The notes beneath the pieces were generated by a model. The model ran no database searches. It was given only the letters and a program-made list of their open reading frames with translations, and was not told the origin of the DNA. From the NCBI GenBank assembly GCA_965198005.1, contig CBDAOI010000004.1, forward strand, positions 1,824,001-1,888,000: a DNA stretch of 64,000 nucleotides, written 5' to 3'. Shown piece after piece: positions 478 through 62,086 of this stretch. The translations under genes and the position numbers were made by a program. Position 1 is the first letter of the stretch. Each line of letters begins with the position of its first letter. This stretch comes from Spirochaetia bacterium (GTDB lineage Bacteria > Spirochaetota > Spirochaetia > SZUA-6 > Bin103).

Positions 478-1542
478 TCATCGATCGTCATCAGGCGTGG
501 CGTCCGCTTCCCCGCTCTGGTCCGCCTCGCCGCCGTCGTCATCATCGTCCTCGTCGTAGTCCTCGTCCTCGTCCTCGTCATATTCGCCGTCGTCGTCCTC
601 GTCCAGCTCGTCGTCGTCCGCCTCGTCCTCCTGCGTGGTCAGCTCCAGGAAGATCTCCTCAAGGCTCATGGCGACGGTCTGCATCGCCAGCAGGGTCCAG
701 CCGCGTTCGACGATGGCACTGGTGATGGCGGCCTGCGGTTCCTGGTCCGCCTCGAACTCGACGACGTGATGCGGGGCGCGATAGTTCACGGCGTGCACGC
801 CGGGCAGCTCCTGCAAGCGGTCGGTGACCTGCTCGGGCGGTCCCTTCACCGTCAGGCGGAGCTGCTCGCCGCCCTTTATAATGGAAGAAAGGTTCTCGAT
901 CCGGTCCTCCGCCACGATCCGACCCTCGTGGATGATGATCACCCGCTCGCAGATCATGCTCACCTCGGGCAGGATGTGGGTGGACAGCAGGATGGTGTGC
1001 TCCTGGCCGAGATCCTTGATGAGCTGCCGGGTCTGGGCCACCTGGATCGGGTCGATCCCGACCGTGGGCTCGTCGAGAATCAGCACGTCGGGCTCGTGGA
1101 TGATCGCCTGCGCCAAGCCGACGCGCTGGCGGAACCCCTTCGACAGCTTGGACAGGAGCACGTCGCGGTACTCCTCGATGGCGCAGATCTCGATCACTTC
1201 GTCAATGCGGCGGCGCGCCGTGGCCTTGTCCAGACCGCGCAGCCGTGCCGCGAACTCAAGGTAGCTGCGGGTGTTCATGTCAGTATAGAGCGGCACGACC
1301 TCCGGCAGGTAGCCGATGTGGCGCCGCCCCTCGACCGAATGGGTGGCCATGTTGTGCTCGCCCACCCAGACGTCGCCGCGGGTCGGCATGAGCACGCCGG
1401 TGATGATGCGCATGGTGGTCGACTTCCCCGCGCCGTTGGGGCCGAGAAAGCCGACGATCTCGCCCTGCTCGACGTTGAAGCCGATGTCGTCGACCGCCAA
1501 GCGTTCGCCGTAGTACTTGGTGAGGTTCTCAATCCGAATCAT
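478..1542 (-). CDS. ABC transporter ATP-binding protein (GldA/ABC-2 type) with acidic C-terminal tail
   Basis: Walker A GPNGAGKS, signature LSKGFRQR, Walker B ILDEP; D/E-rich tail. Confidence 0.9.
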   Translation of the reverse strand: MIRIENLTKYYGERLAVDDIGFNVEQGEIVGFLGPNGAGKSTTMRIITGVLMPTRGDVWVGEHNMATHSVEGRRHIGYLPEVVPLYTDMNTRSYLEFAARLRGLDKATARRRIDEVIEICAIEEYRDVLLSKLSKGFRQRVGLAQAIIHEPDVLILDEPTVGIDPIQVAQTRQLIKDLGQEHTILLSTHILPEVSMICERVIIIHEGRIVAEDRIENLSSIIKGGEQLRLTVKGPPEQVTDRLQELPGVHAVNYRAPHHVVEFEADQEPQAAITSAIVERGWTLLAMQTVAMSLEEIFLELTTQEDEADDDELDEDDDGEYDEDEDEDYDEDDDDDGGEADQSGEADATPDDDR

Positions 1543-1749: not shown

Positions 1750-3405
1750 ATGACCGGTTTCGAATACATCGTCCGTATCCTCCAGGAAGAGGGGATCGAG
1801 TGGCTCGCCTGTTTCCCCAGCAACCCGATTATCGACCACGCCGCGCTGCGCGGGCTGCGGCCCGTGATGTTCCGCCACGAGCGCGGCGCCGTGATGGCGG
1901 CGGACGGCTACAGCCGCACCAGCAGCCGCCGGCGGTTCGGCGTGGTGGCCGTGCAGGCGCAGGCGGGCGCGGAGAACTCGGTGGGCGGGCTGGCCCAGGC
2001 GGCCGCCGACAACGTGCCGATCCTGTTCCTGGTGGCAGGCAACCCGCTCAACCGCGTCACGCGGCCGAACTTCTCGGCCGCCCGGGTCTATCCGGACGTG
2101 GCCAAGTCGGTGGAGACGGTGCTGCGCATCGACGAGCTGGCCAACGTGATGCGGCGGGCGTTCCACGCGCTGCGCAGCGGGCCGCCGGGACCGGTGGTGG
2201 TGGAGGTGTCGGAGGACGTGTGCGCGCAGGAGGTGCCGCCCGCGGCCTGCAACTACCGCTCGCCGCGGCCCGCCCGCCAGGCGCCCGCCGCGGCCGACGT
2301 GGCCGCCGCCGCCGCCTTGCTGCGCGATGCCAAGCGGCCGGCAATCTGGGCGGGCGCCGGGGTGCTGGCGGCCCAGGCCAGCGCCGACCTGGTGCGGCTG
2401 GCGGAGCTGCTGCCGGCGCCGGTGTTCTGCACCATGCCCGGCAAGTCGGCCATGCCCGAGACCCATCCGCTGGCGCTCGGCGCCGGCAGCAGGGCGACCA
2501 CGCTGCCCGCGCGCCGCTGGCTGACCGAGTGCGACGTGCTGCTCGCGGTCGGCGCCAGCCTCACGCGCACGTTCTACGCCCAGCCCGTGCCGCCCGCGGC
2601 GACGCTGATTCATAACAGCATCGACCCGGCGGACGTCAACAAGGACGAGGCGGCTGCGGTCGGGCTGGTGGGGGACGCCGGACTCACCCTGCAGGCGCTG
2701 ATCGCCGAGCTGCAGGACGGCGCCGCCGGAGCCGCCGCGAATGCCGACGCGGTGGAGCGGCTGGCGGCGGAGGTGGCCGCGACGCGCGCGCAGTGGATGG
2801 CCACCTGGGGCCCGATTCTCACCTCCGACGAGCAGCCGCTCAGCTACTACCGGGTGGTGCACGCCCTGAACGAGGTGCTGGATGCGGACGCGAGCATCGT
2901 CACCCACGACGCCGGCGCGCCGCGCGACTGTCTGGTACCCTTCTACCGCGCCACGGTCCCGTACAGCTACGTGGGGTGGGGGAAGACCACCCACCTGGGG
3001 TTCGGCCTGCCGCTCGTGATCGGGGCCAAGCTGGCCCACCCGGACAAGTTCTGCCTGAACGTGATGGGCGATGGCGCGTTCGGGATGTCCGGCCTGGACC
3101 TGGAGACGGCGGTGCGGGCGCAGATCCCGATCACCACCGTGCTGCTGCGCAACCGCGCCATGGCCACCTACGCCGCCCGCCTCGCCGATCCGCTGTGGCA
3201 GGCGGCGCTGGCCGCCGGCGTGGGCACCTTCGGCGGCGACTATGCCGGCGTGGCGGAGTCGCTCGGCGGCACCGGGATCAGGGTGCGCACCGCCCCCGAG
3301 CTGCACGCCGCGCTGGAGCAGGCCCAGCGCCTGAACGCCGCCGGCACCACCGTGCTGATCGACGTCGAGACCAACGTGGAGGCCCGCCGCTCCCCGGACG
3401 GCTAG
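1750..3405 (+). CDS. Thiamine pyrophosphate-dependent enzyme (acetolactate synthase-like)
   Basis: RHERGAVMAADGY, GPPGPV and GDGAFGM...N TPP motif; RBS GAGGAG. Confidence 0.9.
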   Translation: MTGFEYIVRILQEEGIEWLACFPSNPIIDHAALRGLRPVMFRHERGAVMAADGYSRTSSRRRFGVVAVQAQAGAENSVGGLAQAAADNVPILFLVAGNPLNRVTRPNFSAARVYPDVAKSVETVLRIDELANVMRRAFHALRSGPPGPVVVEVSEDVCAQEVPPAACNYRSPRPARQAPAAADVAAAAALLRDAKRPAIWAGAGVLAAQASADLVRLAELLPAPVFCTMPGKSAMPETHPLALGAGSRATTLPARRWLTECDVLLAVGASLTRTFYAQPVPPAATLIHNSIDPADVNKDEAAAVGLVGDAGLTLQALIAELQDGAAGAAANADAVERLAAEVAATRAQWMATWGPILTSDEQPLSYYRVVHALNEVLDADASIVTHDAGAPRDCLVPFYRATVPYSYVGWGKTTHLGFGLPLVIGAKLAHPDKFCLNVMGDGAFGMSGLDLETAVRAQIPITTVLLRNRAMATYAARLADPLWQAALAAGVGTFGGDYAGVAESLGGTGIRVRTAPELHAALEQAQRLNAAGTTVLIDVETNVEARRSPDG

Positions 3406-3436
3406 CGCCGTAGTGCGGCATTGCGGTATGCTCGGC

Positions 3437-3465
3437 TTGACCGTCCGGCGTCACGGGGGTAAACT
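3437..3465 (+). promoter_or_regulatory. Putative sigma70 promoter pointing into the intergenic low-GC region
   Basis: TTGACC (3437-3442), 17-nt spacer, TAAACT (3460-3465). Confidence 0.55.
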
Positions 3466-3471
3466 TCAGTC

Positions 3472-3750
3472 ATAGGTTTCGCGCGGATATCGAAATCCCG
3501 GTGCTTCGTGCACTGCGGAGTGGAGATTCCCTTGCGGAGTTCCTGACCTTGATGTGTTGCGTCAAGTCAAGGAGCGCGGTCAAGAGGCCAGAGCGAGGAC
3601 CTGGACGGGCCCGTCCTCTCCTCGTTAGCTAGCTTGGCTTAAAGGCGTGGAGACGAGAGATTGCGCAAAAATTTTTGTTAACGCGCATCCGTCGCTAACC
3701 TTGGCAACGAAGAATAGAGTAGCCGCGTCTTTTCTGGCGCGGCTATTTTC
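3472..3750 (+). ncRNA. Candidate ~280-nt structured RNA (or short-peptide transcript)
   Basis: Lies between the promoter above and a plus-oriented terminator; hairpin CTTGATG/CGTCAAG at 3548-3566; perfect palindrome GGACGGGCCCGTCC at 3603-3616; no convincing ORF. Confidence 0.3.
3720..3750 (+). terminator. Intrinsic terminator (possibly bidirectional)
   Basis: TAGCCGCGTC-TTTTCT-GGCGCGGCTA followed by TTTTC; the G.U pair forms only in the + transcript. Confidence 0.6.
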
Positions 3751-4637
3751 TATCTCACGTTGTCGTTCGGTGCAACGTTCACGTGCAACCGACCTGCGGG
3801 AATACTCTGAGGCTCGTGGCAGCCCGGGAAGGTCATGTGCCTCCGCGGTATTTCGCAGTCGTAGTGAAAGCGTGGATCAAAGGATACGCCGAACCGCAGT
3901 CGACCTCGTATCACGCATGACGAATCGTGGGTTCCATCACGCCAGAGCGGAGCCAAACCATGGCGGCTAATTTTTCCGGGACACTTGAATACGACGTTGC
4001 CATCTCCGACAAAGTACTTTCGTTCGCGCTTGCGAAGCAGGGAGGATACGTGCTTCAGGCTCTTTCTGAACTTGTCTTCTCCTTCTCGGTTTCGGACAGC
4101 CTGCCGTATTGGTTCACGGATATCAGAAAACGCATTTCCGAACGTCTTTGGCGGGAGCAAGAGGCATGTCCTGTTGTCCCGATTCGTTACTTCTTCGGCA
4201 ATCACATGTAGCAATCCCCGCGTTTGTCGGAGGGCTCGATTGATCTCCTTGATCCACATGTTCATTATTCGATTGCGTTGGTTGGACGTGACCATTCTCA
4301 TGCTGCCCATACTTTTGACGTGCAGCGGCAAGAGGAGGGCCTCAAGGCCGAATCCATGAAGCAACCTGCTGTCGCTCCCGTCAGATTCTTCGGCGTAGAG
4401 GACAATGAGGTTCGCATTGGTCAATAGGTTCTCGCGCTGCGCAGGCTGATGCTGCCTAAGTTCGCATGCAACGCGTTCATACAGCTTCGAGACGTAATCG
4501 TCGGTGTAACGTTCCGGATATGGAAGACCTCGCAAGGGAAGGAACACTTCCGGACGTGTCTTCCGGAGAGGAGCAGCGAGACGGTCCAGGATCGCAGGCT
4601 GAACGCCCGCTATCACAACGTAGACCTTCCGCTTCAC
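3750..4637 (-). CDS. Hypothetical protein, 295 aa, with His/Cys-rich C-terminal region
   Basis: Long ORF in low-GC DNA; GTGA overlap with the upstream gene; motifs RHG, RFG, FHYDC, CH, HVNVAPND. Confidence 0.75.
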   Translation of the reverse strand: MKRKVYVVIAGVQPAILDRLAAPLRKTRPEVFLPLRGLPYPERYTDDYVSKLYERVACELRQHQPAQRENLLTNANLIVLYAEESDGSDSRLLHGFGLEALLLPLHVKSMGSMRMVTSNQRNRIMNMWIKEINRALRQTRGLLHVIAEEVTNRDNRTCLLLPPKTFGNAFSDIREPIRQAVRNREGEDKFRKSLKHVSSLLRKRERKYFVGDGNVVFKCPGKISRHGLAPLWRDGTHDSSCVIRGRLRFGVSFDPRFHYDCEIPRRHMTFPGCHEPQSIPAGRLHVNVAPNDNVR

Positions 4638-5326
4638 GGAGACTGCCGCCGCAATTTGGAAACTACGTCTAGTGGCATAGTGACTCGTTCAAGTTCGCTG
4701 GTTTCGAGAGTATCCAATAATCGGTCGAGCAGATCACGGGGTTGTTCGGTTGACTTTCCCGAACTCAGATAGATTCTTGATTCAATTCCAGAGCGATCAA
4801 GCCAGTCCTGTGCCGCCTGCTGAACGTGGTTGGAGTCAGCCTCCGGACCCACTATGTATTCTCGCTGTATTTCTACGAATCCATCCGGTTTCTCAGCCGA
4901 AGCTGAATCTCGAAATCGCACGGGTTCATGGATGCTTATGAAACGGCTCTCGCATTTGTCTATCGGTTTGCGAAATGCGGCCCAGAAAGCGGGGTGGAAA
5001 CGCAGCACCGTGTTTGCCGTCTTGCTCTGCGTTTTCTCCAGCAGAATGTCGCCCCCCCCTTCTTCAAGCAAGTCCACGCCCATCGGTATAGCTCCGACCA
5101 ACTGGCTCTTTGATTGATGTTGCACGACTCGCACTTGATCGGAAAGGTGACGTTCCAAGTATTCCCGCAAGCTGCTCGAGTATTGTCTCGTAAGCTTGGA
5201 TATTTCTCCATCGTCTTGAAGCCCCAGACGGCTCAAGAGCAGGGGCACCCTGTTGGTTTCCCAGTACTCGGTAACCGACCGAATGATACGACGGTTGAGA
5301 TCGTCAGTACTCATGTTCGTCACCAT
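4634..5326 (-). CDS. Hypothetical protein, 230 aa; N-terminus resembles an OST-HTH/LOTUS-like winged helix
   Basis: Long ORF in low-GC DNA; PLLLSRLG...SLREYL pattern; extended -10 TGGTATAAT immediately upstream. Confidence 0.7.
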   Translation of the reverse strand: MVTNMSTDDLNRRIIRSVTEYWETNRVPLLLSRLGLQDDGEISKLTRQYSSSLREYLERHLSDQVRVVQHQSKSQLVGAIPMGVDLLEEGGGDILLEKTQSKTANTVLRFHPAFWAAFRKPIDKCESRFISIHEPVRFRDSASAEKPDGFVEIQREYIVGPEADSNHVQQAAQDWLDRSGIESRIYLSSGKSTEQPRDLLDRLLDTLETSELERVTMPLDVVSKLRRQSP

Positions 5327-5334
5327 ATCGGTAG

Positions 5335-5343
5335 ATTATACCA
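5335..5343 (-). promoter_or_regulatory. Extended -10 promoter of the two-gene islet
   Basis: TG-G-TATAAT, 8 nt before ATG 5326. Confidence 0.6.
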
Positions 5344-5385
5344 CGTCCTATCACAGTTTGGTAGCGAAGGTAGCGAAGGGCTAGC

Positions 5386-6171
5386 CTAGTGCATGGTGGA
5401 GCCGCCGGAGAGGTTGAGGGACTGGCCGGTCATGCCGCGGGCGTCGTCGGAGGCGAGGTAGACGGCCAGGCCGGCGATCTCGTCTGGTTCGAGCAGGCGG
5501 CCGATGGGGTTTGCGTCGGCCTCGCGCTGGGCGAGCGTCACGCCGCTCAGTTCCGCTTCGAACTGGAGCCGCCGCATCAGCATCACGGTGCGCGTGGCGC
5601 CCGGGCAGATGGCGTTGATCGTGACGCCGCGGCCGGCGGTTTCCAGCGCCGCGGTGCGCGTGAGCCCGATCAGGGCGTGCTTGGTCGCGGTGTAGGCGCC
5701 GGCTGCCACCAAGCCGCGCTTGCCGGCCACCGACGCCATGTTGATCACCCGGCCCCAGCCGCGTTCCGCCATCGCCGGCACCAGCGCCTTGGTCAGGAGG
5801 TAGGGCGCGGTGAGGTTGATCGCGATGCTCAAGTCCCAGAAGTCGTCGTCGTAGTCCACGATCCGGCGCGGGTTCGAGCTGCTGCCGAGCCCGGCGTTGT
5901 TGACCAGGATGTCCACCGCCGGGAAGTGGCGGGCCACGCGCTCCGGCAACCCGATCGTGGCCGCGCGGTCGCTCAGATCGACCGCCAGCGCCACCGCCGA
6001 GCGGCCCAGGGCGGTGACCTCGGCCGCGACTTGCTCGATCTCGGCGACGGTGCGCGCGGTCACCGCCACGTCCGCCCCTTCGCGCGCGAATGCCAGCGCG
6101 ATGGCGCGTCCGATGCCGCGTCCGGCGCCGGTCACCAGCGCCACCCGGTTCTGCAATTTCATACCACTCAT
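5386..6171 (-). CDS. SDR family oxidoreductase
   Basis: TGAGRGIG, NNAG, YTATK. Confidence 0.92.
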   Translation of the reverse strand: MSGMKLQNRVALVTGAGRGIGRAIALAFAREGADVAVTARTVAEIEQVAAEVTALGRSAVALAVDLSDRAATIGLPERVARHFPAVDILVNNAGLGSSSNPRRIVDYDDDFWDLSIAINLTAPYLLTKALVPAMAERGWGRVINMASVAGKRGLVAAGAYTATKHALIGLTRTAALETAGRGVTINAICPGATRTVMLMRRLQFEAELSGVTLAQREADANPIGRLLEPDEIAGLAVYLASDDARGMTGQSLNLSGGSTMH

Positions 6172-8363: not shown

Positions 8364-9205
8364 GAGACATCAAAGATAAAGTCGCAGTGATCACCGGCGC
8401 GGGGCGCGGCATCGGCCGCGGGATCGCCCTCCACTGCGCCAAGCAAGGGATGAAGGTTGTTTTGGCCGGATTCGGGATGGAATCGCTCACCAAGACCGCC
8501 GCCGACCTGGAGGCGCTGGGGGCCGAGACGCTGATCGTCCAGACGGATGTATCCCAGGTAGAACAGGTGGAAAATCTGGCAGCAGCCACGATCGAAGCCT
8601 TTGGGCAGGTCGACCTGCTGGTGAACAACGCCGGGGTCGCGCAGCCGGGCAAGACACTGGAGATCACACTGGACGACTGGAACTGGGTAATGGGGGTCAA
8701 TTTTTACGGGGTGCTCTATGGCCTGCGTGCATTCGTCCCCCGCATGATCAAACGGAAGCAGCCCAGTCATGTGGTCAATGTCTCATCCCTTTCCGGCGTG
8801 CTCCCGGGGGGCGGGTCGTATGGGGTCTCGAAACATGCAGTGGTGGTCCTGACCGAGTCGCTCTATCACGATTTGGCCGAGTCGGCGCCCCACGTCAAGG
8901 TTTCGGTGCTCTGCCCGGGATGGGTGGCGACCGAGTTTTACCGCGTGGATCAATCTCGTCCGGAGCGTTTCAAAGGGGAGACGACCGAGGTGACCGAGAA
9001 GCACCGGGAGAATTGGCGCGGGTGGCTGGCCGCAGGAATCACGACTGACCAGGCGGCGCAGATCCTCTTCGACGGCCTGGCGCAAGACCAGCTGTACATC
9101 GGCCTCCAGGGCTTCCGGGAAGCGGGACAGGATGTCGGAGAAAAGGTCAAGAACCGGGCTGAGAATATTGTCCAGGAGAAGAACCCGCTTATCTCGTCAT
9201 CCTGA
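8360..9205 (+). CDS. SDR family oxidoreductase
   Basis: TGAGRGIG, NNAG, YGVSK; RBS AGGAGAGG before ATG 8360; codon usage less GC-extreme than the backbone. Confidence 0.9.
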   Translation: MRDIKDKVAVITGAGRGIGRGIALHCAKQGMKVVLAGFGMESLTKTAADLEALGAETLIVQTDVSQVEQVENLAAATIEAFGQVDLLVNNAGVAQPGKTLEITLDDWNWVMGVNFYGVLYGLRAFVPRMIKRKQPSHVVNVSSLSGVLPGGGSYGVSKHAVVVLTESLYHDLAESAPHVKVSVLCPGWVATEFYRVDQSRPERFKGETTEVTEKHRENWRGWLAAGITTDQAAQILFDGLAQDQLYIGLQGFREAGQDVGEKVKNRAENIVQEKNPLISSS

Positions 9206-9237
9206 GCGGCGAGGCACTAGCCGCCACGTCGGCGCGC

Positions 9238-9414
9238 TCACCCGCCGACAGCGTGGCCCAAATGGAAGGTCACACGGACGAACCCGTTACGTTCATCTTG
9301 CATGAGTTCCGGCTCCGTACCGTTGAACTCGCGCATTTCTCGCTGCATGATCAGCCAGCCGTGATGTTGCAGCGCGGCTACTGTCTGTTCCGACCAGGCT
9401 TCATTTCGATGCAT
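9238..9414 (-). pseudogene. Remnant resembling the C-terminus of AlbA_2/HATPase_c_4 (RecG-C-like) proteins
   Basis: Manual translation ...GWLIMQREMREFNGTEPELMQDERNGFVRVTF..*, 58 aa. Confidence 0.45.
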
Positions 9415-10700
9415 GCGGGCGATGCGTTGACGGTGGCGTCCGCGGCGGCGGTCTCGGCCGTTGCGTCAGGCGGCGGGTCCGGCGCGGCCGGGGTCAGGCA
9501 GGCGCGGTTCAGCGCGCCGACGGTGGTGCAGCCGATCAGGGCCATGGTGCGCGCCAGCTCTTCCGCCAGCAGGGCGATGGCGTGGTCCACCCCCGCCTCG
9601 CCGGCGGCGCCGAGGCCGTAGAGATAGGGGCGCCCGGTCATGCAGGCGGCGGCGCCGAGCGCCACGGCCTTGGCGATGTCGCCGCCGCGGCGCACGCCGC
9701 CGTCGCAGATCACCGCCGCCCGGCCGCCGAGGGCGTCGGCTACCGGCGCCACCAGGTCGAGCGTGGCGGGCGAGCCTTCGAGCTGGCGGCCGCCGTGATT
9801 GGACAGGACGACCGCGGCGCAGCCGTGTTCGACCGCCAGCCGGGCGTCGGCCACGGTCTGGATGCCCTTGACCAGCAGCGGCCCGTCCCAGATCGAACGC
9901 AGCCACTCCAGGTCGCGCCAACTGCAGGTGGGGTCGAACTGGGACGCGATGTAACTGGACAGCGCCACCGGCGTGGACCCATCGGCGGCGCCGCGGCCGG
10001 CGAAGCAGGCGAAGGTGATCGGCTCGGCGCGGATGAAGCGCCAGGTCCACCCCGGGTGGCGGATGCCGTCGAGCAGCGTGCCGAGCCCGAGTTGCGGCGG
10101 CAGCGCGAGGCCGTGGCGGACGTCGCGTTCGCGCCGGCCTGCCACGGGCGTGTCGGCGGTGAGCATGAGCGCGCCGTACCCGGCGTCGGCGGCGCGCTGG
10201 ACCAGCTCCCGCACCAGGCCCCGGTCGCGCAGCATGTAGAGCTGGAACCAGAGGTCGCCGGCGCCGGCCGCCGCCACCTCCTCGATCGAGCGCGTGCCCA
10301 CGGTCGACAGGCAGTAGGGGATGCCGGCGCGGACGGCCGCGCGCGCCGGCGCCAGCTCGCCGTCCGGGTGGGCGATCCGCGTGAAGCCGGTGGGGGCGAG
10401 CACCAGCGGCAGCGCCAGCCGGCGCCCGAGCAGGGTGGTGCCGGTGTCCACCCGCGACACGTCGCGCAGCACGCGCGGCGCCCAGCACCGGCGCCGGTAG
10501 GCGGCGCAGTTGGCGCGCATGCTCACCTCGTCCTCGGCGCCGCCGTCGACGTAGTCGAACACGCCGCGCGGCAACCGCCGCTGCGCCATCCTCCGCAGGT
10601 CCGCCACGTTGAGCGCCCGCCGCCGCAGCCACTCCTGCCGGTCGCGCGCTCGCCTCCGCAGCCGAAACACCGCCCGCAACGAGTGCAGGTCAGGAGTCAA
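9378..10700 (-). CDS. FMN-dependent alpha-hydroxy-acid dehydrogenase/oxidase (LldD-like)
   Basis: FDYVDGGAEDE, LVKGI, SNHGGRQL, DGGVRRGGD. Confidence 0.9.
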   Translation of the reverse strand: MTPDLHSLRAVFRLRRRARDRQEWLRRRALNVADLRRMAQRRLPRGVFDYVDGGAEDEVSMRANCAAYRRRCWAPRVLRDVSRVDTGTTLLGRRLALPLVLAPTGFTRIAHPDGELAPARAAVRAGIPYCLSTVGTRSIEEVAAAGAGDLWFQLYMLRDRGLVRELVQRAADAGYGALMLTADTPVAGRRERDVRHGLALPPQLGLGTLLDGIRHPGWTWRFIRAEPITFACFAGRGAADGSTPVALSSYIASQFDPTCSWRDLEWLRSIWDGPLLVKGIQTVADARLAVEHGCAAVVLSNHGGRQLEGSPATLDLVAPVADALGGRAAVICDGGVRRGGDIAKAVALGAAACMTGRPYLYGLGAAGEAGVDHAIALLAEELARTMALIGCTTVGALNRACLTPAAPDPPPDATAETAAADATVNASPACIEMKPGRNRQ

Positions 10701-11248
10701 CTGACGAATTGAGTGAGCCTGGGGTATTCACGACACGCCTCTTTCAGAGATGGGGGTGCGAAACGATCAAGCCGTTGTGTTTCTTGGCACATGCGATGCA
10801 GCTCGTCTGCGAGACGGCGAACGTCTTTCTGCTTCAGATTCCGTAACTGTGGTTTGTAGTCCTGCTCCTCATCGACTTGGATTCCATCGCCGAGGTACTT
10901 GAGCCACGTTTCGATGTTTCGTTTTGGGATGGCTACGATTACCCGATCATCCGGTTGTCGCCGGGGAACGTGCTTTCTGTCGCATTCTTGATCCAACTTT
11001 GAACGTCTGGAGGCCGTCGAGATTGTATCCGCATCAGTCACCAGGAGCAGAACCGTCCTTTGTCGGTGTCGAATGGCCTGCAATTCTTGGGGGAAGCGCT
11101 CTCTTACCCACTGTTCTCCGGATCCCGTAGGACCGGGAAGAGGCAGACTATGAATGTCATGACGGCCAAAGTTGCGATGTCTCAGAAACCGACGGACGAA
11201 GCCCTCGGTTCGCATGTCTTCGCAGAGCAAGACTACTCTTGTCGCCAT
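10697..11248 (-). CDS. TOPRIM-like protein (DUF4276/RloB-like) partnered with an ABC ATPase
   Basis: VVLLCED near the N-terminus, LVTDAD DxD motif, NIETW; low GC. Confidence 0.65.
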   Translation of the reverse strand: MATRVVLLCEDMRTEGFVRRFLRHRNFGRHDIHSLPLPGPTGSGEQWVRERFPQELQAIRHRQRTVLLLVTDADTISTASRRSKLDQECDRKHVPRRQPDDRVIVAIPKRNIETWLKYLGDGIQVDEEQDYKPQLRNLKQKDVRRLADELHRMCQETQRLDRFAPPSLKEACREYPRLTQFVS

Positions 11249-11276
11249 TCGTCCGGTCCACGCTCAATGTTCCGGA

Positions 11277-12389
11277 TCAGTCGCCGTTGTCGTCCCATCC
11301 GCGTGCGATGGTCTCTGAAATCGATAGTCCGTCGACCGCGGCCTTAGGTTGGTCGCTCACCCGGGCCGGGCCATCTCCATCTCGGAAGAACCACCTGCCA
11401 TGCGCGCCCGCCATATAGTCGATGGTCACCGGATGATGGGACACGACGACGATCTGTTCCAGCGACTCGCCGCACCTCTCCATCGCCTGCGCGAGCCATG
11501 GCTGAATCTCCCGCAGAGCGAGGTAGTTGTCAGGTTCGTCGATGAACAGGGAAACGCGGCGGTCGTCCGTGAGCATAGTCAGGCTGTATAGCGCAATTAA
11601 AGCTCGCTGGCCGTCGGATAGCTGATCGAGGCCATAGTCGATCGTGCTGTTGGATGGACCGCGAAACGTAACTTTGAGAGCGCGCGAGTTCTCGCCGGAT
11701 TCTCTGAGTCTGAGTGAAGCGAAGCTCGGAAGAGATTCGCGCAGTGTCTCGAACAGCGCTCCTACGGAGCCCATGTTCTCCTGGGAATAGTGGCGGTACC
11801 AGCCGACAAAGTTGTCCATGAGAGGCTTAAGAAAGTCGTCTTCCGTCCTGGTTTCGGGCTTGATCAGGGGCGCACATGGACGTACGATTATGTAGTTTTG
11901 AAGATCTTTCTTGAACTTGGTCAACTTCTGATTATCGGGTCGTTCGTTCAGTGTACCTACTCCGGAGAGCGTCCAATCGAACGGATAGGCAGGACCCTCG
12001 TTGTAGTCGTCATGGTACAGTTGAGCTTCGCCATTCCTGAATTCAAAGATCGGTCTTCCGTCATGTTCAAGGGTTTCTTTCAGTATCCTCATTCTGTCAC
12101 GATCCGGGTCGTGTTCTACTTCGAGTCCGTAAACGTAAGAATGCCCATCGACGCTGGTCGCGATTTCGAAACGCTGTACGTTTCGCTTTCTGTTCAATGT
12201 CAGATCACGTGCCGGCAATACTTCGTCGATCCTGGCCCCGCGCACGACCAGATGTTGGATCCTTCGTAGTACGTCGAGCACTGACGTCTTGCCGGTGCCG
12301 TTGGCGCCAAGCAAGACGTTTGCTTCATCGAGCTCAAGTTCGAAATTGGTCAGGCACCGGAAGTTGTCGGCATAGAGTCTCTTCAGCAT
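11277..12389 (-). CDS. ABC/AAA_21-type ATPase
   Basis: NFRC, GANGTGKT, LSDGQR, FIDEPDN, SHHP. Confidence 0.88.
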   Translation of the reverse strand: MLKRLYADNFRCLTNFELELDEANVLLGANGTGKTSVLDVLRRIQHLVVRGARIDEVLPARDLTLNRKRNVQRFEIATSVDGHSYVYGLEVEHDPDRDRMRILKETLEHDGRPIFEFRNGEAQLYHDDYNEGPAYPFDWTLSGVGTLNERPDNQKLTKFKKDLQNYIIVRPCAPLIKPETRTEDDFLKPLMDNFVGWYRHYSQENMGSVGALFETLRESLPSFASLRLRESGENSRALKVTFRGPSNSTIDYGLDQLSDGQRALIALYSLTMLTDDRRVSLFIDEPDNYLALREIQPWLAQAMERCGESLEQIVVVSHHPVTIDYMAGAHGRWFFRDGDGPARVSDQPKAAVDGLSISETIARGWDDNGD

Positions 12390-33990: not shown

Positions 33991-34017
33991 GGATCACTTA
34001 GGATCACCGATGAGGGG

Positions 34018-34113
34018 TCACCACTCGGTCAGCAGAAACTCGCGGATGTGAACGTGGTGGATGCCCTTCTGCCCTGCTCCGATGACGGGATCCATCGAGA
34101 CCACGAACTTCGG
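34018..34113 (-). pseudogene. C-terminal remnant of an AAA_14/DUF4143-type ATPase
   Basis: Manual translation PKFVVSMDPVIGAGQKGIHHVHIREFLLTEW*. Confidence 0.5.
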
Positions 34114-34260
34114 GACGAGCACGACGTGCACGACGTGCTGATTCCGACGGGCAGGGAACAACGCCACCGCCCTTCGCACCAATCCCGTTCATCCTGAAAC
34201 TCCCGTCAGAGGTCCTCCTGAGTAGTTACCGAATATGACCTTAAATCACCCTTCTCCCCC

Positions 34261-35228
34261 TTGTCTTTCATGATAGGTAGGCTGGCTAAAAGCTGGGAAA
34301 CGCCTGACGATACAACGATTATCTTCAACATCCGGCAGGGCGTTCACTGGCATAATAAGGCGCCGATGAACGGTCGGGAGCTAACCGCCGATGATGTCGA
34401 GTACAACTTCCACCGCATGACGGGTATGGGCAAGTTTGCCGACGCCGGACCCGTCCCGTTTGGTGGCGCAGCCAATCTCGTCTCCATACCATGGGAATCG
34501 ATAACGGCCACCGACAAATATACGGTTGTTATACATAATGCCTCCCGAAGTGATCGAGCAACTACCGGACCCTGGATGCTGGCTGACATAGTCGATGGGA
34601 GCTCTATAACCTATTCCAAGAATCCTGACTACTGGGGCTACGACGAAAAATACCCGCAGAACCGCTTGCCCTATGCCGACGATCTCAGGTGGCTGATTTT
34701 TCCAGAGTCAACAACAGCTGTGGCAGCACTACGCTCAGGCAAGCTTGATTTCAGTCGGTTTGTTTCTACTCTCGACTCGGTACTGAGTCTGGAGCGGACC
34801 AACCCGGAAATCGCGGCCCACGCGATTTGGTTTCGGTCGGATGTCGCTCTTGCTACTGACGTGCGCAAGCCGCCCTTCGATGACATCCGCGTGCGCAGGG
34901 CGATGCAGATGGCACTGGAGGTTGGTATCGCTCGGATGCACAGTGGAACCGCCCCGGATCCCAGTGGCCTGAGTTGGACGCCATGGTTGACGCCGCCCTA
35001 GCCGCTACCACCATGGAGGAGCAGGAGAGGCTGATTGCAGAGGCAGACATGTACGCTATAGAGAATCACTGGCAGATATGGGGTCCCAAGAGTCCATTCT
35101 TTATCTTGGCCCAGCCGTGGCTCGTAGGCTATGACGGTGAATCAGACGAAACCTTCGGAGACTATGTGCAAACTTTGTTTGCCCGCCTCTGGATTGACAG
35201 TGAGCTGAAGAAAGCAATGGGTCATTAG
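34261..35228 (+). pseudogene. Degraded peptide ABC substrate-binding gene (paralog of 46147-47939)
   Basis: Shares NIRQGVHW...MNGRELTA.DVEYNFHRM, PPF.DIRVRRAMQMAL and LWID.E.K.AMGH; 5' end missing, two internal deletions, one frame change. Confidence 0.85.
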
Positions 35229-35327
35229 TGCCTGCTCTCGGGGATAACTGAAGCGTCTAACGGAGCTGGGGGGCTCAAACCCCCCGGGTTTCGGAGTATA
35301 TACCGCGATGGCAGGAAGTAGTGTGAT

Positions 35328-35786
35328 ATGAGGGCCTATATCATCAGGCGGTTATTGCTGATGATCCCCATTTTGTTCATATTGAGCATTCTGGTATTTT
35401 TTTCGGTTCGCTTCATACCCGGCGATGTCATAAACACAATGTTGGGTAAGGGGGAATTCTATGGTGAGGTGAAACGTGAAGCTCTTGAGCGTATGCTGGG
35501 ATTGGACGTGCCTGTGCATGTGCAGTATGGACGCTGGATAGGAGTGTTGCCGACCCCTGACTGGGTTACCGGTGAGTCCCACTTCAAAGGTCTCCTCCAG
35601 GGCAGCCTTGGCCACTCACTACTTGGCAGCCGGGAGGCGGTGGAGGAGAAGATAGTAGATAGACTGCCAGTGACCATTGAGCTTGGTGTCCTGGCAATGG
35701 TGATTGGTCTGGTGATAGCGGTGCCAGTCGGCATCTACTCGGCGATTCGCCAGGATACAGCCACCGACTACGCTGCGCGTACTCTT
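35328..35786 (+). pseudogene. 3'-truncated peptide ABC permease (DppB-like)
   Basis: MRAYIIRRLL...AIRQDTATDYAAR, then similarity to the paralog at 48164 stops. Confidence 0.85.
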
Positions 35787-35975
35787 GAGTGTCCCCAAGG
35801 GCACGCCGATAGTTCTGGCGAAGGCGGGTTGTGACAGCCCCGTCTTGCCGCGGATGGAGCAGACATCGGGCTCGGGCACCTCAATGTCGTGCATTCCGAA
35901 CCCGTCTCGCTCGCCATTCAAATAGGCGTGTGCATCCTCAAGCCCGGCCATAACTCTATTGAATGCCGTGCTCAT
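35784..35975 (-). pseudogene. 3'-truncated HigA/XRE antitoxin
   Basis: MSTAFNRVMAGLEDA...IRGKTGLSQPAFARTIGVPLGTLK, cut before the usual WEQGRR; RBS AGGAGG. Confidence 0.75.
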
Positions 35976-36195
35976 TTGCGCCTCCTGTAATCCCTCTACG
36001 ACAGAACCCCCTTGGCCGCCGCAAGATATGCGGGAGTCTCAACGACGGTCCGGAACGCCCCGTGCATTGTGCGAGTATAGGCGCCCCTGGCGCCGGCGTC
36101 AACGGCGCGAGAACACGCTGCCGGTGTGCTCGGGGTGTCGCCAGGTCACCGGCACGCCGTTTCCGCGACGCGGGCGACGCGACGCGACGCGAACG

Positions 36196-44970: not shown

Positions 44971-45027
44971 TTCAATGAACCGGTTGCAGCTTGACTTGTC
45001 GGAGGTAGGGCAAGACACTCGATTCGC

Positions 45028-45723
45028 ATGTTGACCCGGCTACAGGTTTCCGGTTTCAAGAACCTGGTCGACGTGGATCTCCGCCTTGGTTCGTTTACCT
45101 GCGTAGTCGGGCCGAACGGGGCGGGTAAGTCGAACCTGTTCGACGCGATTCGGTTTCTGAGTGGACTGGCCAACGGCATCTCATGTTTCCCCACAGTGCA
45201 AAGGACTGGCGCAAGTCCGTCGTGCGGGGTCGGCGGAGCGCGCACCACTTCATCTCAACCGAGGGGAGGGTGAGAACCGCGTGATCAAGCTGCATCAGGA
45301 TGGCGGCAGCAGTGGACGTCCGTTGCTGCCGGACGAATTGGCCGGACGAATTCGTTTCTCCCACCCACCTGGGAGCCGACGGACGTCATCTTGCGGCCAC
45401 GCTGCACCGGCCGGCGCGCAAATCAGGGAAGCATGGGCATGGCGGCAACGGGCAAGCTCCGGGTGAGAGCCTCTATGGGGCAGCTTCCAACGCCGAGCGC
45501 GAACAAGTGTATGGCCACGTCACCAACCGCTGCGGGGCACCGTTTCAAGAAAGCACAATTCCTGTGTTTGTCGGATACCTGGCGAGCGCAAGAGAGCGAC
45601 TATGCCGTTCGTGGTGAACTTCTCGCATATCTGAATCCGGTGCTGCTCGAGGCACCGGGAGAATCGGCGGTCAAGAAACGGGTCGTCGATAGAGAAGACA
45701 TGCAACAGGCAGTTTCCTTATTA
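45028..45723 (+). pseudogene. Fragmented ABC/AAA ATPase
   Basis: MLTRLQVSGFKN...GPNGAGKSNLFDAI, then fragments in other frames (IKLHQDG, LGADGRHLAATL, ELLAYLNP). Confidence 0.75.
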
Positions 45724-45734
45724 GTTCGGCATCT

Positions 45735-46025
45735 GTGCAAAGATTGAGATACACGTTGGTGGCAGATGGCGCGTCTGATCGCGCCTTGATCCCAATTCTC
45801 ACGTGGCTATTGAAGAAGTTCTGCGGTGCTCTTGCTATCCAGCCAGAGTATTCTGACCTGCGGCGTCTGAGGAACCCACCGAGGAGACTCTCTGAACGTA
45901 TCGCAAGGAGTATTGAACTGTATCCTTGCGATATGTTATTCGCCCAATCTCGGATCGACGAAATATCTGCGGCTCTCCGGCAGAGTCAGATAAGTACACC
46001 GTCTGTAGTGTGTGTAGTTCCCTAG
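45735..46025 (+). pseudogene. N-terminal half of a DUF4276-like TOPRIM protein
   Basis: YTLVADGASDRALIPIL...YPCD...VVCVVP then stop. Confidence 0.7.
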
Positions 46026-46146
46026 CCACTGCTCCGTCTGGCTGCTACGAAATGCTCCACACGGTCGCGCGTTGCGGGCCCGAGAGTAGCCAGAGAGCGG
46101 CAATCCGCTACGGAATACTCTCGAAATAACATTCAAGGAAGAAACG

Positions 46147-47939
46147 ATGAAGATATTTTTTCAAGGACCTTCGCGATTGCGTTGGTCCTAGTTCTGACCG
46201 CGACCGGCCTCTGGGCCGCTGGCGCAGAAGAGGAACCCGCAGCCGCTGCCGATAAGAAGTATGTCACCGACCCCGTCACCGGCAAGGTGTACTCCGCGCC
46301 AGAGTATGGCGGGACAGTCACGGCTGCCATGCGAATCCCGAAGGACGCTGTTGACCCCGCTGTAGGTGGAGGGGCCAACACGATCAGCATGATCGTTAAT
46401 GAGAAGCTAGGCCAGTTGAACTGGGCACTAGATAGGGACGCTTATTCTTTTACCGGCGGCTACATGACGCCTGTATACGCCCTAATCGGGGCGCTGGCTG
46501 AAAGCTGGTCGCAGCCCGACTTACTGACGTATATCGCCAATATCCGCCAGGGCGTTCACTGGCACGATAAGGCACCGATGAATGGGCGGGAGTTAACTGC
46601 CGAGGATGTAGAATATAACTTTCACCGAATGTTGGGTATGGGCAAGTTTGCCGACGCCGGACCTTGGCCCACCTTAGGGGAATTCGGAGCTGTGGCTTGG
46701 GAATCGATAGAGGCCACCGACACATGGACGGTTGTTTTCAAGCTGAAGGAGCCAAGTCTCCGTGCCCAAATGCTTATCTTGGACGGCCACCTTCAGATTA
46801 TACTGCCCCCCGAGGTAATCGAGGAACACGACGACATTTCCGATTGGAGGAACCTGGTTGGCACCGGGCCTTATGAGCTGACTGACTGGGTCAAAAACAG
46901 TTCTCGTGAATACACCAGGAACCCTAACTACTGGGGCTTCGACCCAAAATACCCGGAGAACCGCTTGCCCTATCTTGACAAGATACAGGAACTTCTTATC
47001 CCGGAAGTGTCAACACGTCTGGCGGGAATGCGCTCGGGTAAGCTCGATTACATAGGACATGGGGGCGCCACTCAAATAGGGGTGGTGGACCAAGCATTGA
47101 GTCTCATGCGGACCAACCCCGAACTCCAGCTGTACCCGTGGTCGCAACGATCGGATTCCGCTGCTCATATGAACGTGTCCAAGCCTCCCTTTAACGACAT
47201 CCGGGTGCGCCGGGCAATGCAGATGGCCCTGGACCTCGAGACAATGGACGCATCCTACTTTAAGGGGTATTCAGATTGGATACCCATGGGACTAGTAGGC
47301 AGGGCTGCCAAAGGGTATATGACCCCATATGAAGAGTGGTCCGACGAGCTCAAGGGATACTATGCCTATGACCCGGAAGGGGCCGAAGCGTTACTTGATG
47401 AGGCCGGGTATCCCCGCGGCGCCGACGGCATTAGATTCAAGACCGCGTACATGCACCTCCCCGTGGCTCCTTTGGGCTTGAGAGAATTCATGGCTGCATA
47501 CTGGCTAGAGATTGGCATTGACGTCGATATTGAGGCACTTGAGTTGGCAGAATGGGTAGCTAGAAGGAATAATAAGGATTTTGAAGTGCAGCACGCCTCC
47601 ACGGGCTTCGACCTTGATCCAATGGGTTCAGCAATGAATCTCTTTTACTCGAAAGGCACGTCGTGGACCACAGTCGTCGACGCTCAATATGACGCCTGGT
47701 ATGAAGCCGCCTTGGCGGCTACGACTTTGGAGGAGCAGAGGGACCTGATCAAAAAGATGGACATGCGCTCCATAGAGCAGGCCTGGTTCATCTGGGGACC
47801 CACGGCTCAATCGTTTAACGTGGCCCAGCCGTGGGTGATGGGTTATAACGGCGAAGGCATCGTAGGAGGAAGCGCGAATCGTCATGTCTGGAAATTCCTC
47901 TGGATTGATGGTGAGATGAAGCAAGCAATGGGTCATTAG
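46147..47939 (+). CDS. Peptide/nickel ABC substrate-binding protein (family 5), frameshifted in the signal-peptide region
   Basis: GTGPY, DIRVRRAM; ATG 46147 (RBS AAGGAAG) is out of frame with the body across a T6 run at 46156-46161. Confidence 0.85.
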
Positions 47940-47959
47940 TGGCTGAACCTAGGAAATAA

Positions 47960-47989
47960 GGAGCTGGGAAGCTCACGCTTCCCAGCTCC
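47960..47989. repeat. Strong intercistronic hairpin
   Basis: GGAGCTGGGAAGC-TCAC-GCTTCCCAGCTCC, 13-bp perfect stem. Confidence 0.8.
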
Positions 47990-48163
47990 CACACACGATG
48001 TCATTGCGAGACGTGCCTTCCCAGAAAACGCAACCATTCGAAATTTCGCTGGATTCCCGCTTTCGCCGGAGTGAGAGGAGCCAACCCGTATCTGATACGG
48101 GGTTGGGGTATACACCACAATGACAAAGGGATTGGCGGGGGAAATTGCAATGATGGGTGTGAC

Positions 48164-49167
48164 ATGAGAGCCTATATCATCAGGCGGCTATTGCTCAAAT
48201 CCCCACCCTGTGGATATTGACCATCATAGTCTTTCTCTTGGTCCGATTCATCCCCGGCGATATAATTGACGTAATAGAGGGCAGGATGGAATACTCTCAA
48301 CCCGGCACGATTGACCGTGAAGCTGTTGAGCGTATGCTGGGATTAGACGTGCCTACCTACGTGCAGTATGGACGCTGGATAGGAGTGTTGCCTAGCCCTG
48401 ACCGGATTACCGGTGAGTCCCAATTTAACGGTCTCCTCCAGGGCACCCTTGGCGAATCACTGTTTGTCGGCCATTTGACGATAACGGAGGAGATATTAGG
48501 TGGATTGCCGGTAACCATTGAGCTTGGCGTCATGGCAATCGTAATCGGGATAGTGATAGCGCTGCCAGTCGGCATCTACTCGGCGATTCGCCAGGATACT
48601 GCCGCCGACTACGTGGGGCGCTCCGTCGCCATCATCGGCATGGCAACGCCTAACTTCTGGCTCGGAATCATGGTCATGATGTTCCCGGCAATCTGGTGGG
48701 GCTGGTCGCCGCCGATGAAGCTGATTCTTTTCTCAGAAGACCCGTTAGGGAATCTTGGGATGTTCCTCATTCCCAGCGTGATTCTGGGGACGGCCATGGC
48801 GGCCGGCACGATGCGGATGACGCGCACGATGATGCTGGAGGTGCTCAGGCAGGACTATATCAGGACGGCCTGGTCTAAGGGTCTCAATGAGAGGGTAGTT
48901 GTCCTGAGACACGCCGTCAAGAATGCATTCATACCGGTAGTTACCGGGATAGGTATGCAGTTGCCTATCCTGATAGGTGGCTCCGTTATCATGGAGAATA
49001 TCTTCAACCTGCCGGGATTAGGTCGTCTCACGGTGGATGCACTCAGTAACAGGGACTACCCGATGGTCTCCGGAATAAACCTGGTTTTCGCCACAATGGT
49101 TGTAGGGGTGAATTTAATGATCGACCTGATTTACCCGTACTTAGACCCCAGGGTCCGATACAGCTAA
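48164..49167 (+). CDS. Peptide ABC permease (DppB-like), 1-nt frameshift near codon 12
   Basis: MRAYIIRRLLL, then frame shift to IPTLWILTII; DYIRTAWSKG, LDPR. Confidence 0.85.
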
Positions 49168-49169
49168 AA

Positions 49170-60273: not shown

Positions 60274-62086
<1,813 letters not shown>

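Follow-up and report, generated by a model that had tools for sequence, protein, structure and literature searches.

The window analyzed here comprises 64,000 nucleotides (nt) of the genome of a Spirochaetia bacterium (assembly GCA_965198005.1, contig CBDAOI010000004.1, positions 1,824,001 to 1,888,000, forward strand); coordinates below are those of the window unless a locus is named. Between positions 3406 and 5385, a ~1.98-kb islet of low guanine-plus-cytosine (GC) content, delimited by composition and open reading frames (ORFs), is taken up entirely by a cassette of two overlapping genes, which we call A and B, and a convergent stretch predicted to encode a structured non-coding RNA. The GC content is 0.49-0.57 in 300-nt windows between 3451 and 5400 (islet mean, ~0.53), against 0.70-0.79 in the flanking genes, and the islet is bounded on each side by a stop codon: that of a gene for a thiamine-diphosphate-type enzyme (1750..3405, plus strand) and that of a gene for a short-chain dehydrogenase (5386..6171, minus strand). 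An initial annotation of this DNA had singled out a ~2-kb block of foreign composition between two metabolic genes; the GC drop and the flanking ORFs agree with it, and the layout it described is present in every sequence detail. Relatives come from one scan of 185,579 species genomes, seeded on the C-terminal motifs of B, which returned 36 loci (designated by L numbers below) in 35 genome records: metagenome-assembled genomes of Spirochaetia, several Gammaproteobacteria lineages, Alphaproteobacteria (Paracoccaceae, Rhodobacteraceae and Rhodospirillales) and a Stenotrophomonas.

Gene A (4634..5326, minus strand) encodes 230 amino acids (aa), from an ATG at 5326 to a TGA stop at 4636-4634, and gene B (3750..4637, minus strand) encodes 295 aa, from a GTG at 4637 to a TAG stop at 3752-3750. 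As first noted, the two ORFs are joined by a GTGA overlap (4634..4637), four bases common to the start of B and the stop of A, an arrangement that points to translational coupling; at other loci, A ends at, or a few bases from, the start of B. The perfect extended -10 reported ahead of the operon can be read directly from the sequence (TGgTATAAT, 5335..5343, minus strand), 8 nt 5' of the ATG. It is absent from the list of a two-hexamer promoter scan of 3200-5600 because it has no good -35, and since it ends so close to the start codon, the A-B mRNA is probably leaderless or nearly so. Loci L001 and L002 have a similar TGTGGTA(T/C) element 8-12 nt 5' of the start codon, and others have a TTGGAC-type -35 and a ~35-nt leader ahead of A. 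Between the stop codon of the dehydrogenase gene and the -10 of A, at the islet edge, a 9-nt unit (GGTAGCGAA, plus strand) is repeated 2.2 times exactly at 5360-5379; this may reflect an operator, the scar of an insertion or chance. The A protein of the window is listed in a set of 5.8 billion proteins as P0121 (226 aa, from the ATG at 5314), next to an 88%-identical A, P0122, while no B above 55% identity is found among the matches listed; it therefore seems that B was overlooked in gene calling, both here and in the genome of the close relative.

The 344 nt that lie 3' of the B stop codon hold no long ORF. At the very edge of the islet they carry a predicted promoter reading toward B on the opposite strand (TTGACC-N17-TAAACT, 3437..3465, plus strand; -35 TTGACC, -10 TAAACT), the only site found in the scan of 3200-5600. 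With one site found against 0.6 +/- 0.9 expected, it is on its own not beyond chance. GTCAA, the reverse complement of the TTGAC of the -35, is nevertheless kept in a single aligned column in 27 of 35 downstream regions, at a nearly fixed spacing of 36-40 nt from an almost invariant GGTTTCGCG, so that the promoter proposed from the window alone is now backed by its conserved -35. The RNA would span ~280 nt (3472..3752, plus strand, with ends that we infer), of which ~235 nt precede the terminator. Its body is built from two closing helices, P1 (3474-3478 with 3697-3701) and P2 (3480-3484 with 3645-3649), three internal hairpins and a variable hairpin (3652-3655 with 3690-3693), all on the plus strand, followed by the terminator. 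A pseudoknot pairs UGUUGC (3555..3560), in the loop of the second hairpin, with GCAACG (3704..3709), just 3' of P1. Ahead of TATTTTCT lies the 10-bp terminator hairpin (3719..3746), whose end is 3 nt away from the B stop TAG (3750-3752); the U-run on the RNA strand reaches that stop. Placed to serve both convergent transcripts, the hairpin implies that their 3' ends must overlap across it. A simple terminator scan did not list this hairpin, and the two sites it did list are intragenic and no more numerous than chance; compensatory changes in nine of its ten pairs (helix 10 of the alignment described below) uphold the terminator that had been placed against the stop of the 295-aa gene. The islet thus appears to consist of two convergent transcription units, each with its own predicted promoter.

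Several lines of evidence argue that the convergent transcript is a real structured RNA. The 281-nt transcript of the window folds at -121.3 kcal/mol (z = -5.06), a value that none of 200 shuffles equals. An RNAalifold consensus from 24 sequences contains 64 pairs, 43 of them with compensatory changes; 92.9% of alignment cells are paired, a figure that falls to 38-47% if the 3' partners are slid out of register by 1-3 columns, and none of 500 shuffles reaches any of five pairing measures. A 31-sequence alignment, which takes in a subgroup with an extra inserted hairpin of ~70 nt, is 92.1% paired, with compensatory changes in 45 of 63 pairs. The six pairs of the pseudoknot are formed in 89.9% of cells, against 25-66% when slid, with 13 cells changed on both sides and none of 500 shuffles as high. 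Across the 24 sequences, G-U cells outnumber A-C cells by 220 to 22 and the opposite strand would pair 79.9% instead of 92.9%, which indicates that the RNA is read from the plus strand of the window and is thus convergent with A-B. The several hairpins and the candidate structured RNA proposed at the outset have accordingly gained a folding score, covariation, a pseudoknot, a strand assignment and a conserved -35.

This RNA is under the strongest constraint of the three parts. In a comparison of the 400-600 nt downstream of B, loci with proteins 37-55% identical share 70-87% identity in a block ~100-290 nt 3' of the B stop codon, while the region 5' of A is not conserved among the loci compared. 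Median identity to the window copy is 65% at the nucleotide level for the RNA, variable loops included, against 39% and 43% at the amino-acid level for A and B. About 69 pairs and a pseudoknot are conserved together with many invariant unpaired bases, and insertions and deletions sit in loops and are not multiples of three. A search with nhmmer found a single copy in the window (3474-3754) and copies in 31 of the 36 loci, always beside B or a remnant of B; at L032, a DDE_3 transposase gene (9048-9830) has been inserted between the RNA and the B remnant. Rfam 15 gave no match at E <= 1 across 3200-5600 and, at its gathering score, no family at the RNA position in nine related loci.

Three of the five loci without the window-type RNA carry a second, different conserved element downstream of B in the same convergent orientation (L031, 8877-9160; L034, 266-545; L036, 8225-8510; minus strand of each locus). 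A closing helix, several hairpins and a terminator abutting B make up this element, whose 86 predicted pairs, 10 of them compensatory, come from three sequences only. A 78-position covariance model of the long hairpin of the window RNA detected the window copy at 100 bits; in L031 and L033-L038 it gave no convincing match. The window-type RNA is no more complementary to its own locus than to others (mean longest match, 11.77 nt against 11.78 nt); complementarity to the operon is absent once the terminator is masked, and the alignment contains no fixed-length hypervariable segment able to serve as a guide.

Gene A lies directly upstream of B at 30 of the 34 loci whose upstream side is on the contig, near full length in 28 and as a fragment in two. 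At each of the four loci that lack it (L005, L016, L028 and L032), B is itself N-terminally truncated or fragmented. This co-occurrence, with translational coupling across phyla, and the presence of the RNA beside B at 31 of 36 loci agree with the self-contained protein-protein-RNA unit originally proposed. All-against-all clustering of flanking ORFs gave clusters for A and B only, with no third conserved gene. The neighbors differ at every locus (135 scanned, two genes per side) and are mostly unrelated metabolic or housekeeping genes, such as those for glycosidases, peptidases, PDH E1, MutY, ThiC, RuvC/RuvA and HemB; even L019, L023 and L028, closely related cassettes with 72-80% identity in their downstream regions, stand in different contexts. 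The GC content of the A-B pair is below that of both flanks in 33 of the 34 sources in which both are available, L017 being the exception. Taken together, these observations show that the three parts are kept together and moved together as one unit, and suggest that the islet is a horizontally mobile cassette of foreign-like DNA.

A gene for a transposase, relaxase, resolvase, HigB, HicB, HipA, DruA or Uma2 lies within two genes of the cassette at ~12-15 of the 36 loci. Fragments of IS110-family transposase genes are found just past the RNA promoter in L020 and L024 (~9300-9450), as is an IS110 element in the plasmid form L037 described below. About seven of the 36 copies have decayed (L005, L016, L018, L027, L028, L032 and L036). 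L005, L016, L027 and L028 have lost A and the N-terminus of B; what is left of the B frame is still open, and 83-97% of the consensus pairs of the RNA are retained. Such copies may have become remnants only recently, or may work as a minimal form, in a set biased by the locus search. Since that search was seeded on the C-terminal motifs of B, the direction of truncation is biased and we draw nothing from it.

Protein B is the larger family. The 5.8-billion-protein set contains 256 relatives of it, all lacking a Pfam domain and a usable name, and its profile collects 530 cluster representatives (50% identity) at E <= 1e-3 and 307 at E <= 1e-10. All 150 representatives listed are ~300 aa long or shorter, and a search for longer, fused forms gave none, which is weak evidence. 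In the model of B (predicted local distance difference test [pLDDT] 81, predicted template-modeling score [pTM] 0.84), a small alpha/beta domain at the N-terminus, in which strand 1 is followed by an invariant glycine, precedes a helical middle and a beta-rich C-terminal domain rich in histidine and cysteine. The conserved core (residues 205-295; 3753..4025, minus strand) contains the motifs SPGK..RHG, H-x3-C, R-F-G, FHYDC and CH, and h-N-I-A-P-N-D-x-V-R at the very C-terminus. Across 118 relatives with a median identity of 26% to the window protein, residues kept in at least 90% are G11, T157, L160, L161, P162 and F166 and, within the core, F217, P220, H226, H237, C241, R248, G250, F257, H258, D260, C261, C273, H274, N287, P290, N291, D292 and R295. 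The motifs first picked out by eye (RHG, FHYDC, CH and HVNVAPND) are all present and coincide with invariant residues. The C-terminus is thus probably a zinc site (three cysteines, four histidines) with an active site of histidine, aspartate, asparagine and arginine. As for the metal-binding or RNase site suggested earlier, the pattern of conservation makes it plausible, and a match to a solved nuclease or RNase did not materialize: Foldseek searches of the B model against the PDB and BFVD gave nothing at E <= 0.001 and template-modeling (TM) scores of at most 0.24, the ESM Atlas gave nothing for B, and a sequence-profile search of the PDB gave nothing credible for full-length A, full-length B or the C-terminal domain of B.

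Protein A has 90 relatives in the same protein set, again none with a usable name or Pfam domain. Its model (pLDDT 82, pTM 0.45) suggests separate domains, the first of which (residues 7-81; 5084..5308, minus strand) is modeled as a winged-helix or LOTUS-like fold of three helices and a beta hairpin. Also conserved in the family are a RFHPAFWAAFRKP motif and a helical region at the C-terminus, and the most conserved motif of its alignment is R-F-H-P-A-F-W-A-A-F-R-K-P. An OST-HTH/LOTUS fold had been proposed for the N-terminus, and this has fared unevenly. The winged-helix model lends it weak support: the best Foldseek neighbor in the PDB is the LOTUS domain of TDRD7 (3rco_B; E 0.14, probability 0.91, TM on target 0.60), a second TDRD7 LOTUS match follows (E 0.22, TM on target 0.58), and an OST-HTH cluster appears at rank 10 in the ESM Atlas (score 0.76), which for A otherwise returned only unnamed clusters of its own. 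Against it, no PDB match of the A model is significant (none at E <= 0.001), the C-terminal winged helix of ScpA (TM on target 0.72) and MarR proteins score like LOTUS, and the OST-HTH Pfam model (PF12872) matches none of 48 A-family members at E <= 1. Two other models touch the family below significance: DDE_Tnp_1_assoc, on the C-terminal 50 residues of 17 of the 48 members (13-16 bits against a cut-off of 32.3), and AbiEi_1, on one of the 48 (E 0.074). We infer that A is a nucleic-acid-binding protein with a winged helix, rich in arginine and aromatic residues. A predicted A-B complex scored 0.10, where the mark is 0.32, and is counted neither way.

No curated protein, RNA, structure or defense library that we searched recognizes any part of the module, in keeping with the original failure to recognize a named system. 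Pfam, NCBIfam, PADLOC and PHROGs gave nothing above cut-off for A and B, nor did Pfam for 48 relatives of A and for two sets of 49 and 42 relatives of B, or PHROGs for a few relatives, plasmid forms among them. In PADLOC-DB 2.0, A has no match at E <= 1, B has only a chance-level match to PglX (E 0.017, 12 bits), and eight further members, plasmid forms included, have nothing at E <= 0.01; this check, which the initial annotation had proposed, thus assigned no component to a system model. The structure comparison it had likewise proposed, run with Foldseek on both models, ended in no significant match. A full-text literature search found no description of the module; preprints on intergenic elements gave no match in their main text, and their supplements may list the RNA. 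The module therefore appears to be new in its parts and its architecture, with all three components outside the families of the libraries searched.

Distant relatives of B are found on plasmids. A tblastn search matched the C-terminal 60% of the protein (residues 117-295; profile positions 111-300) on 17 plasmids, with an identity of 24-31%; one of these comes from Synechocystis and the other 16 are carried by Klebsiella, Enterobacter and Escherichia. The enterobacterial version consists of a 135-aa A-like gene, then a 295-aa B-like gene and ~320 nt of non-coding DNA that runs up to an IS110 element. It is represented by L037, an E. coli IncFII plasmid (NZ_CP019904.1, 4270-5898), and 15 further plasmids are near-identical over the cassette. 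The full unit occurs in 16 of 1,051 megablast-matching records; most of the records match just the final 177 nt of the query, and from this we place the left end of the IS110 element at that point. In L037, the one enterobacterial plasmid whose context was read, the unit lies next to a Tn3-family resolvase gene and the IS110 element, and then a Gabija system (GajA, 1037.8 bits). The Synechocystis plasmid form (L038; CP101710.1, 4196-6062) has a convergent TTGACA-N18-TATCAT promoter ~310 nt 3' of the B-like gene and a terminator against the stop codon of that gene, which suggests that the layout persists there. Genes for a 3'-5' exoribonuclease, a WYL-domain protein and a multiubiquitin-domain protein are found in its neighborhood.

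What might such a cassette do? The reading we favor, tentatively and at somewhat less than even chances, is a mobile three-part ribonucleoprotein of the toxin-antitoxin (TA) or defense-like type, in which the RNA restrains a zinc-type enzyme, B. The RNA would be transcribed constitutively from the promoter with the conserved -35, would fold into a closed, pseudoknotted, multi-helix body and would be bound by A, B or both as a ribonucleoprotein. B would be a toxic enzyme, harming the cell or the invader, kept silent by the RNA with A as adaptor, regulator or readout, and it would be released once the supply or integrity of the RNA is disturbed, for example when a phage shuts off host transcription or when the element is lost. 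The unit as a whole would then work as a TA system or through abortive infection. By analogy, several traits are reminiscent of TA and defense modules: an upstream protein with a helix-turn-helix of the winged type whose gene overlaps that of the downstream enzyme, the ~7 decayed copies among 36, the mobile, TA and defense neighbors, and the distant homologues on plasmids, among them the form beside Gabija and that of Synechocystis with its convergent promoter. It is also possible, though we lean against it, that the module represents a new class of RNA-centered immune or addiction machine, with the ~235-nt RNA as the core of a ribonucleoprotein with two proteins of new folds or families, no reverse transcriptase, Cas protein, TnpB or repeat array, and at least two RNA types that have co-diverged with the proteins.

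Several results weigh against a role in toxicity or defense. In structure searches, the predicted fold of B matches no known toxin; PADLOC and PHROGs match no member tested; and no homologue of B was found in 50,697 phage records. The mostly housekeeping neighbors speak against enrichment in defense islands in the main clade, so that the enrichment which the initial annotation had suggested looking for is absent there, and only about a third of loci have mobile, TA or defense neighbors. The RNA seems more elaborate than a simple inhibitor needs to be, and a scaffold or catalytic role would fit as well. Decayed copies that keep the RNA offer no argument either, because oppositely truncated copies could not have been found.

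Some of these same points would favor a ribonucleoprotein enzyme of another kind, with the RNA as scaffold, cofactor, substrate or ribozyme for B in RNA modification, RNA processing or sensing. Such a role would suit an RNA that is the most conserved part (65% of nucleotides, against 39% and 43% of residues in A and B) and an elaborate one, with 64 helical pairs, a pseudoknot and invariant unpaired stretches; it would suit, too, the alpha/beta N-terminal domain of B with its invariant glycine and enzyme-like conserved site, as well as the housekeeping genes that surround most loci. The patchy, low-GC, single-copy and often decayed occurrence of the cassette is better explained by a selfish or defense module, however, and neither a fixed-length hypervariable guide segment nor excess complementarity to the own locus (11.77 against 11.78 nt) is found, so we consider this alternative doubtful. 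A pair of proteins akin to type II or type IV TA systems, with A as DNA-binding antitoxin, B as toxin and the RNA as a separate, linked regulator, is in our view unlikely. It would account for the AbiE-like layout (an upstream winged helix, a 4-nt overlap and a downstream enzyme of ~300 aa), for the touch of AbiEi_1 on one of 48 A members (E 0.074) and for the overlap of transcript 3' ends across the terminator hairpin; yet the RNA stays with A-B in all 31 loci of its type (type 1) and is conserved above either protein, its conserved structure is not part of the stretch that overlaps the mRNA, and apart from the masked terminator it has no complementarity to the operon.

Mobility raises the prospect that A, B or both catalyze the movement of the cassette, with the RNA as a guide or bridge as in IS110 elements or the omega RNAs of IS200/605. 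Insertion at many unrelated sites by an element with no integrase of its own, edges that coincide with the two promoters, and the weak resemblance of the A C-terminus to DDE_Tnp_1_assoc in 17 of 48 members would all be accommodated. We nevertheless judge this quite improbable: the window contains a single copy and the 36 loci are spread over 35 genome records, terminal inverted repeats, a repeat array and complementarity between RNA and flanks are absent, and no transposase, recombinase, TnpB or IscB model of Pfam or NCBIfam was matched. That the downstream block is instead a DNA site (operator, recombination site or origin) or a short coding region is hardly credible. The plus-strand RNA is a prediction from sequence, which leaves some room for it; against this stand the compensatory changes in 43 of 64 pairs and the 92.9% pairing in register against 38-47% when slid, the strand-specific excess of G-U over A-C (220 to 22), the conserved promoter and terminator that frame the block, and indels that fall in loops and are not multiples of three.

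A putative RNA-restrained enzyme of this kind would be widespread, with 530 cluster representatives at 50% identity for the B family alone and a module that spans several bacterial classes. To our knowledge, few structured RNAs of comparable size have protein partners of their own, and every one characterized to date has opened a field: RNase P, tmRNA, CRISPR, retrons, and the omega and bridge RNAs. With small parts of 230 aa, 295 aa and ~280 nt that have their own promoters, the cassette allows the hypothesis to be tested directly in a laboratory host.

Elsewhere in the window, whose GC content is 0.70, further low-GC stretches (0.52-0.59) at 10650-12300, 34000-36000, 45000-50000 and 52000-53000 may be other acquired islets. 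A match to the Rfam family 5_ureB_sRNA (86 bits) lies at 61548-61840 on the plus strand; as this family overlaps the ureB coding region, urease genes are probably found there. An ORF for an ABC-type ATPase (478-1542, minus strand) ends in a tail of ~60 residues, nearly all aspartate and glutamate.

Among known systems, AbiE-type (type IV) and type II TA pairs have an upstream winged-helix gene that overlaps the gene of a ~300-aa enzyme by 4 nt, and no RNA part. The likeness is one of layout only, in the GTGA overlap and the winged-helix model of the A N-terminus, and no match to AbiEi or to AbiEii and its nucleotidyltransferase domain was found, the best being that of AbiEi_1 to a single A member. 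The LOTUS resemblance of A is similarly confined to a small winged-helix model whose best neighbor is TDRD7, with an E value of 0.14 that is not significant and an OST-HTH profile that leaves all 48 members unmatched. Retrons and DRT systems combine a structured non-coding RNA and proteins including a reverse transcriptase in defense; our cassette is likewise tripartite, with a structured RNA and two proteins, but A and B match no Pfam family and there is no third conserved gene, hence no reverse transcriptase, and the RNA is convergent and downstream. It differs from CRISPR-Cas, OMEGA and IS110 bridge-RNA systems in that no Cas, TnpB, IscB or DEDD-recombinase model of Pfam or NCBIfam is matched and no repeats are present; the IS110 genes that adjoin L020, L024 and L037 are separate insertions. 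A guide or bridge RNA was considered and rejected, as there is no excess RNA-locus complementarity, no terminal inverted repeat and no array.

Other parallels are found where an RNA keeps a toxin in check. Type I TA systems such as TxpA/RatA and BsrG/SR4 have an antisense RNA that is convergent with the toxin gene and overlaps its 3' end; it works through base pairing, and the toxin is a small membrane peptide. The candidate RNA gene described here is likewise convergent with the putative toxin gene and shares a 3'-end overlap with it, whereas that overlap is the terminator alone, the conserved structure lies outside it, and complementarity to the operon is absent. Type III TA systems (ToxIN, CptIN, TenpIN) are mobile and patchily distributed, and often act against phages. 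Their antitoxin, a pseudoknotted non-coding RNA whose gene adjoins that of the toxin, keeps the toxin protein inactive; it is a tandem array of short repeats on the same strand, upstream of the toxin gene and processed by the toxin. The proposed working principle is the same, an RNA holding a toxin in check. Here, however, a single non-repetitive, multi-helix RNA of ~280 nt lies downstream and convergent under its own promoter, there is a second protein, A, and between 3300 and 5500 the only tandem array is the 9-nt repeat at 5360-5379. B matches no model in Pfam, NCBIfam or PADLOC, a result that extends to ToxN/AbiQ if these libraries contain models for them. Membership in type III was therefore rejected on families and layout, there being no library match for B and an RNA that is non-repeat, downstream and convergent.

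A precedent for a single structured RNA in place of a repeat array is AbiF/RCd22 from a Clostridioides difficile prophage, in which a structured, non-repeat RNA is reported to neutralize an Abi toxin directly, through RNA-protein contact (PMC12373285). In the same account, the toxin is of the Abi_2/HEPN type and the RNA carries abiF motifs (PMC12373285). Our module differs from it in having no Pfam match, Abi_2 included, no Rfam match, two proteins and a convergent layout. If it proves to be a true TA system with an RNA antitoxin, it would thus be a new architecture for a known principle, and a variant of that principle rather than a new kind.

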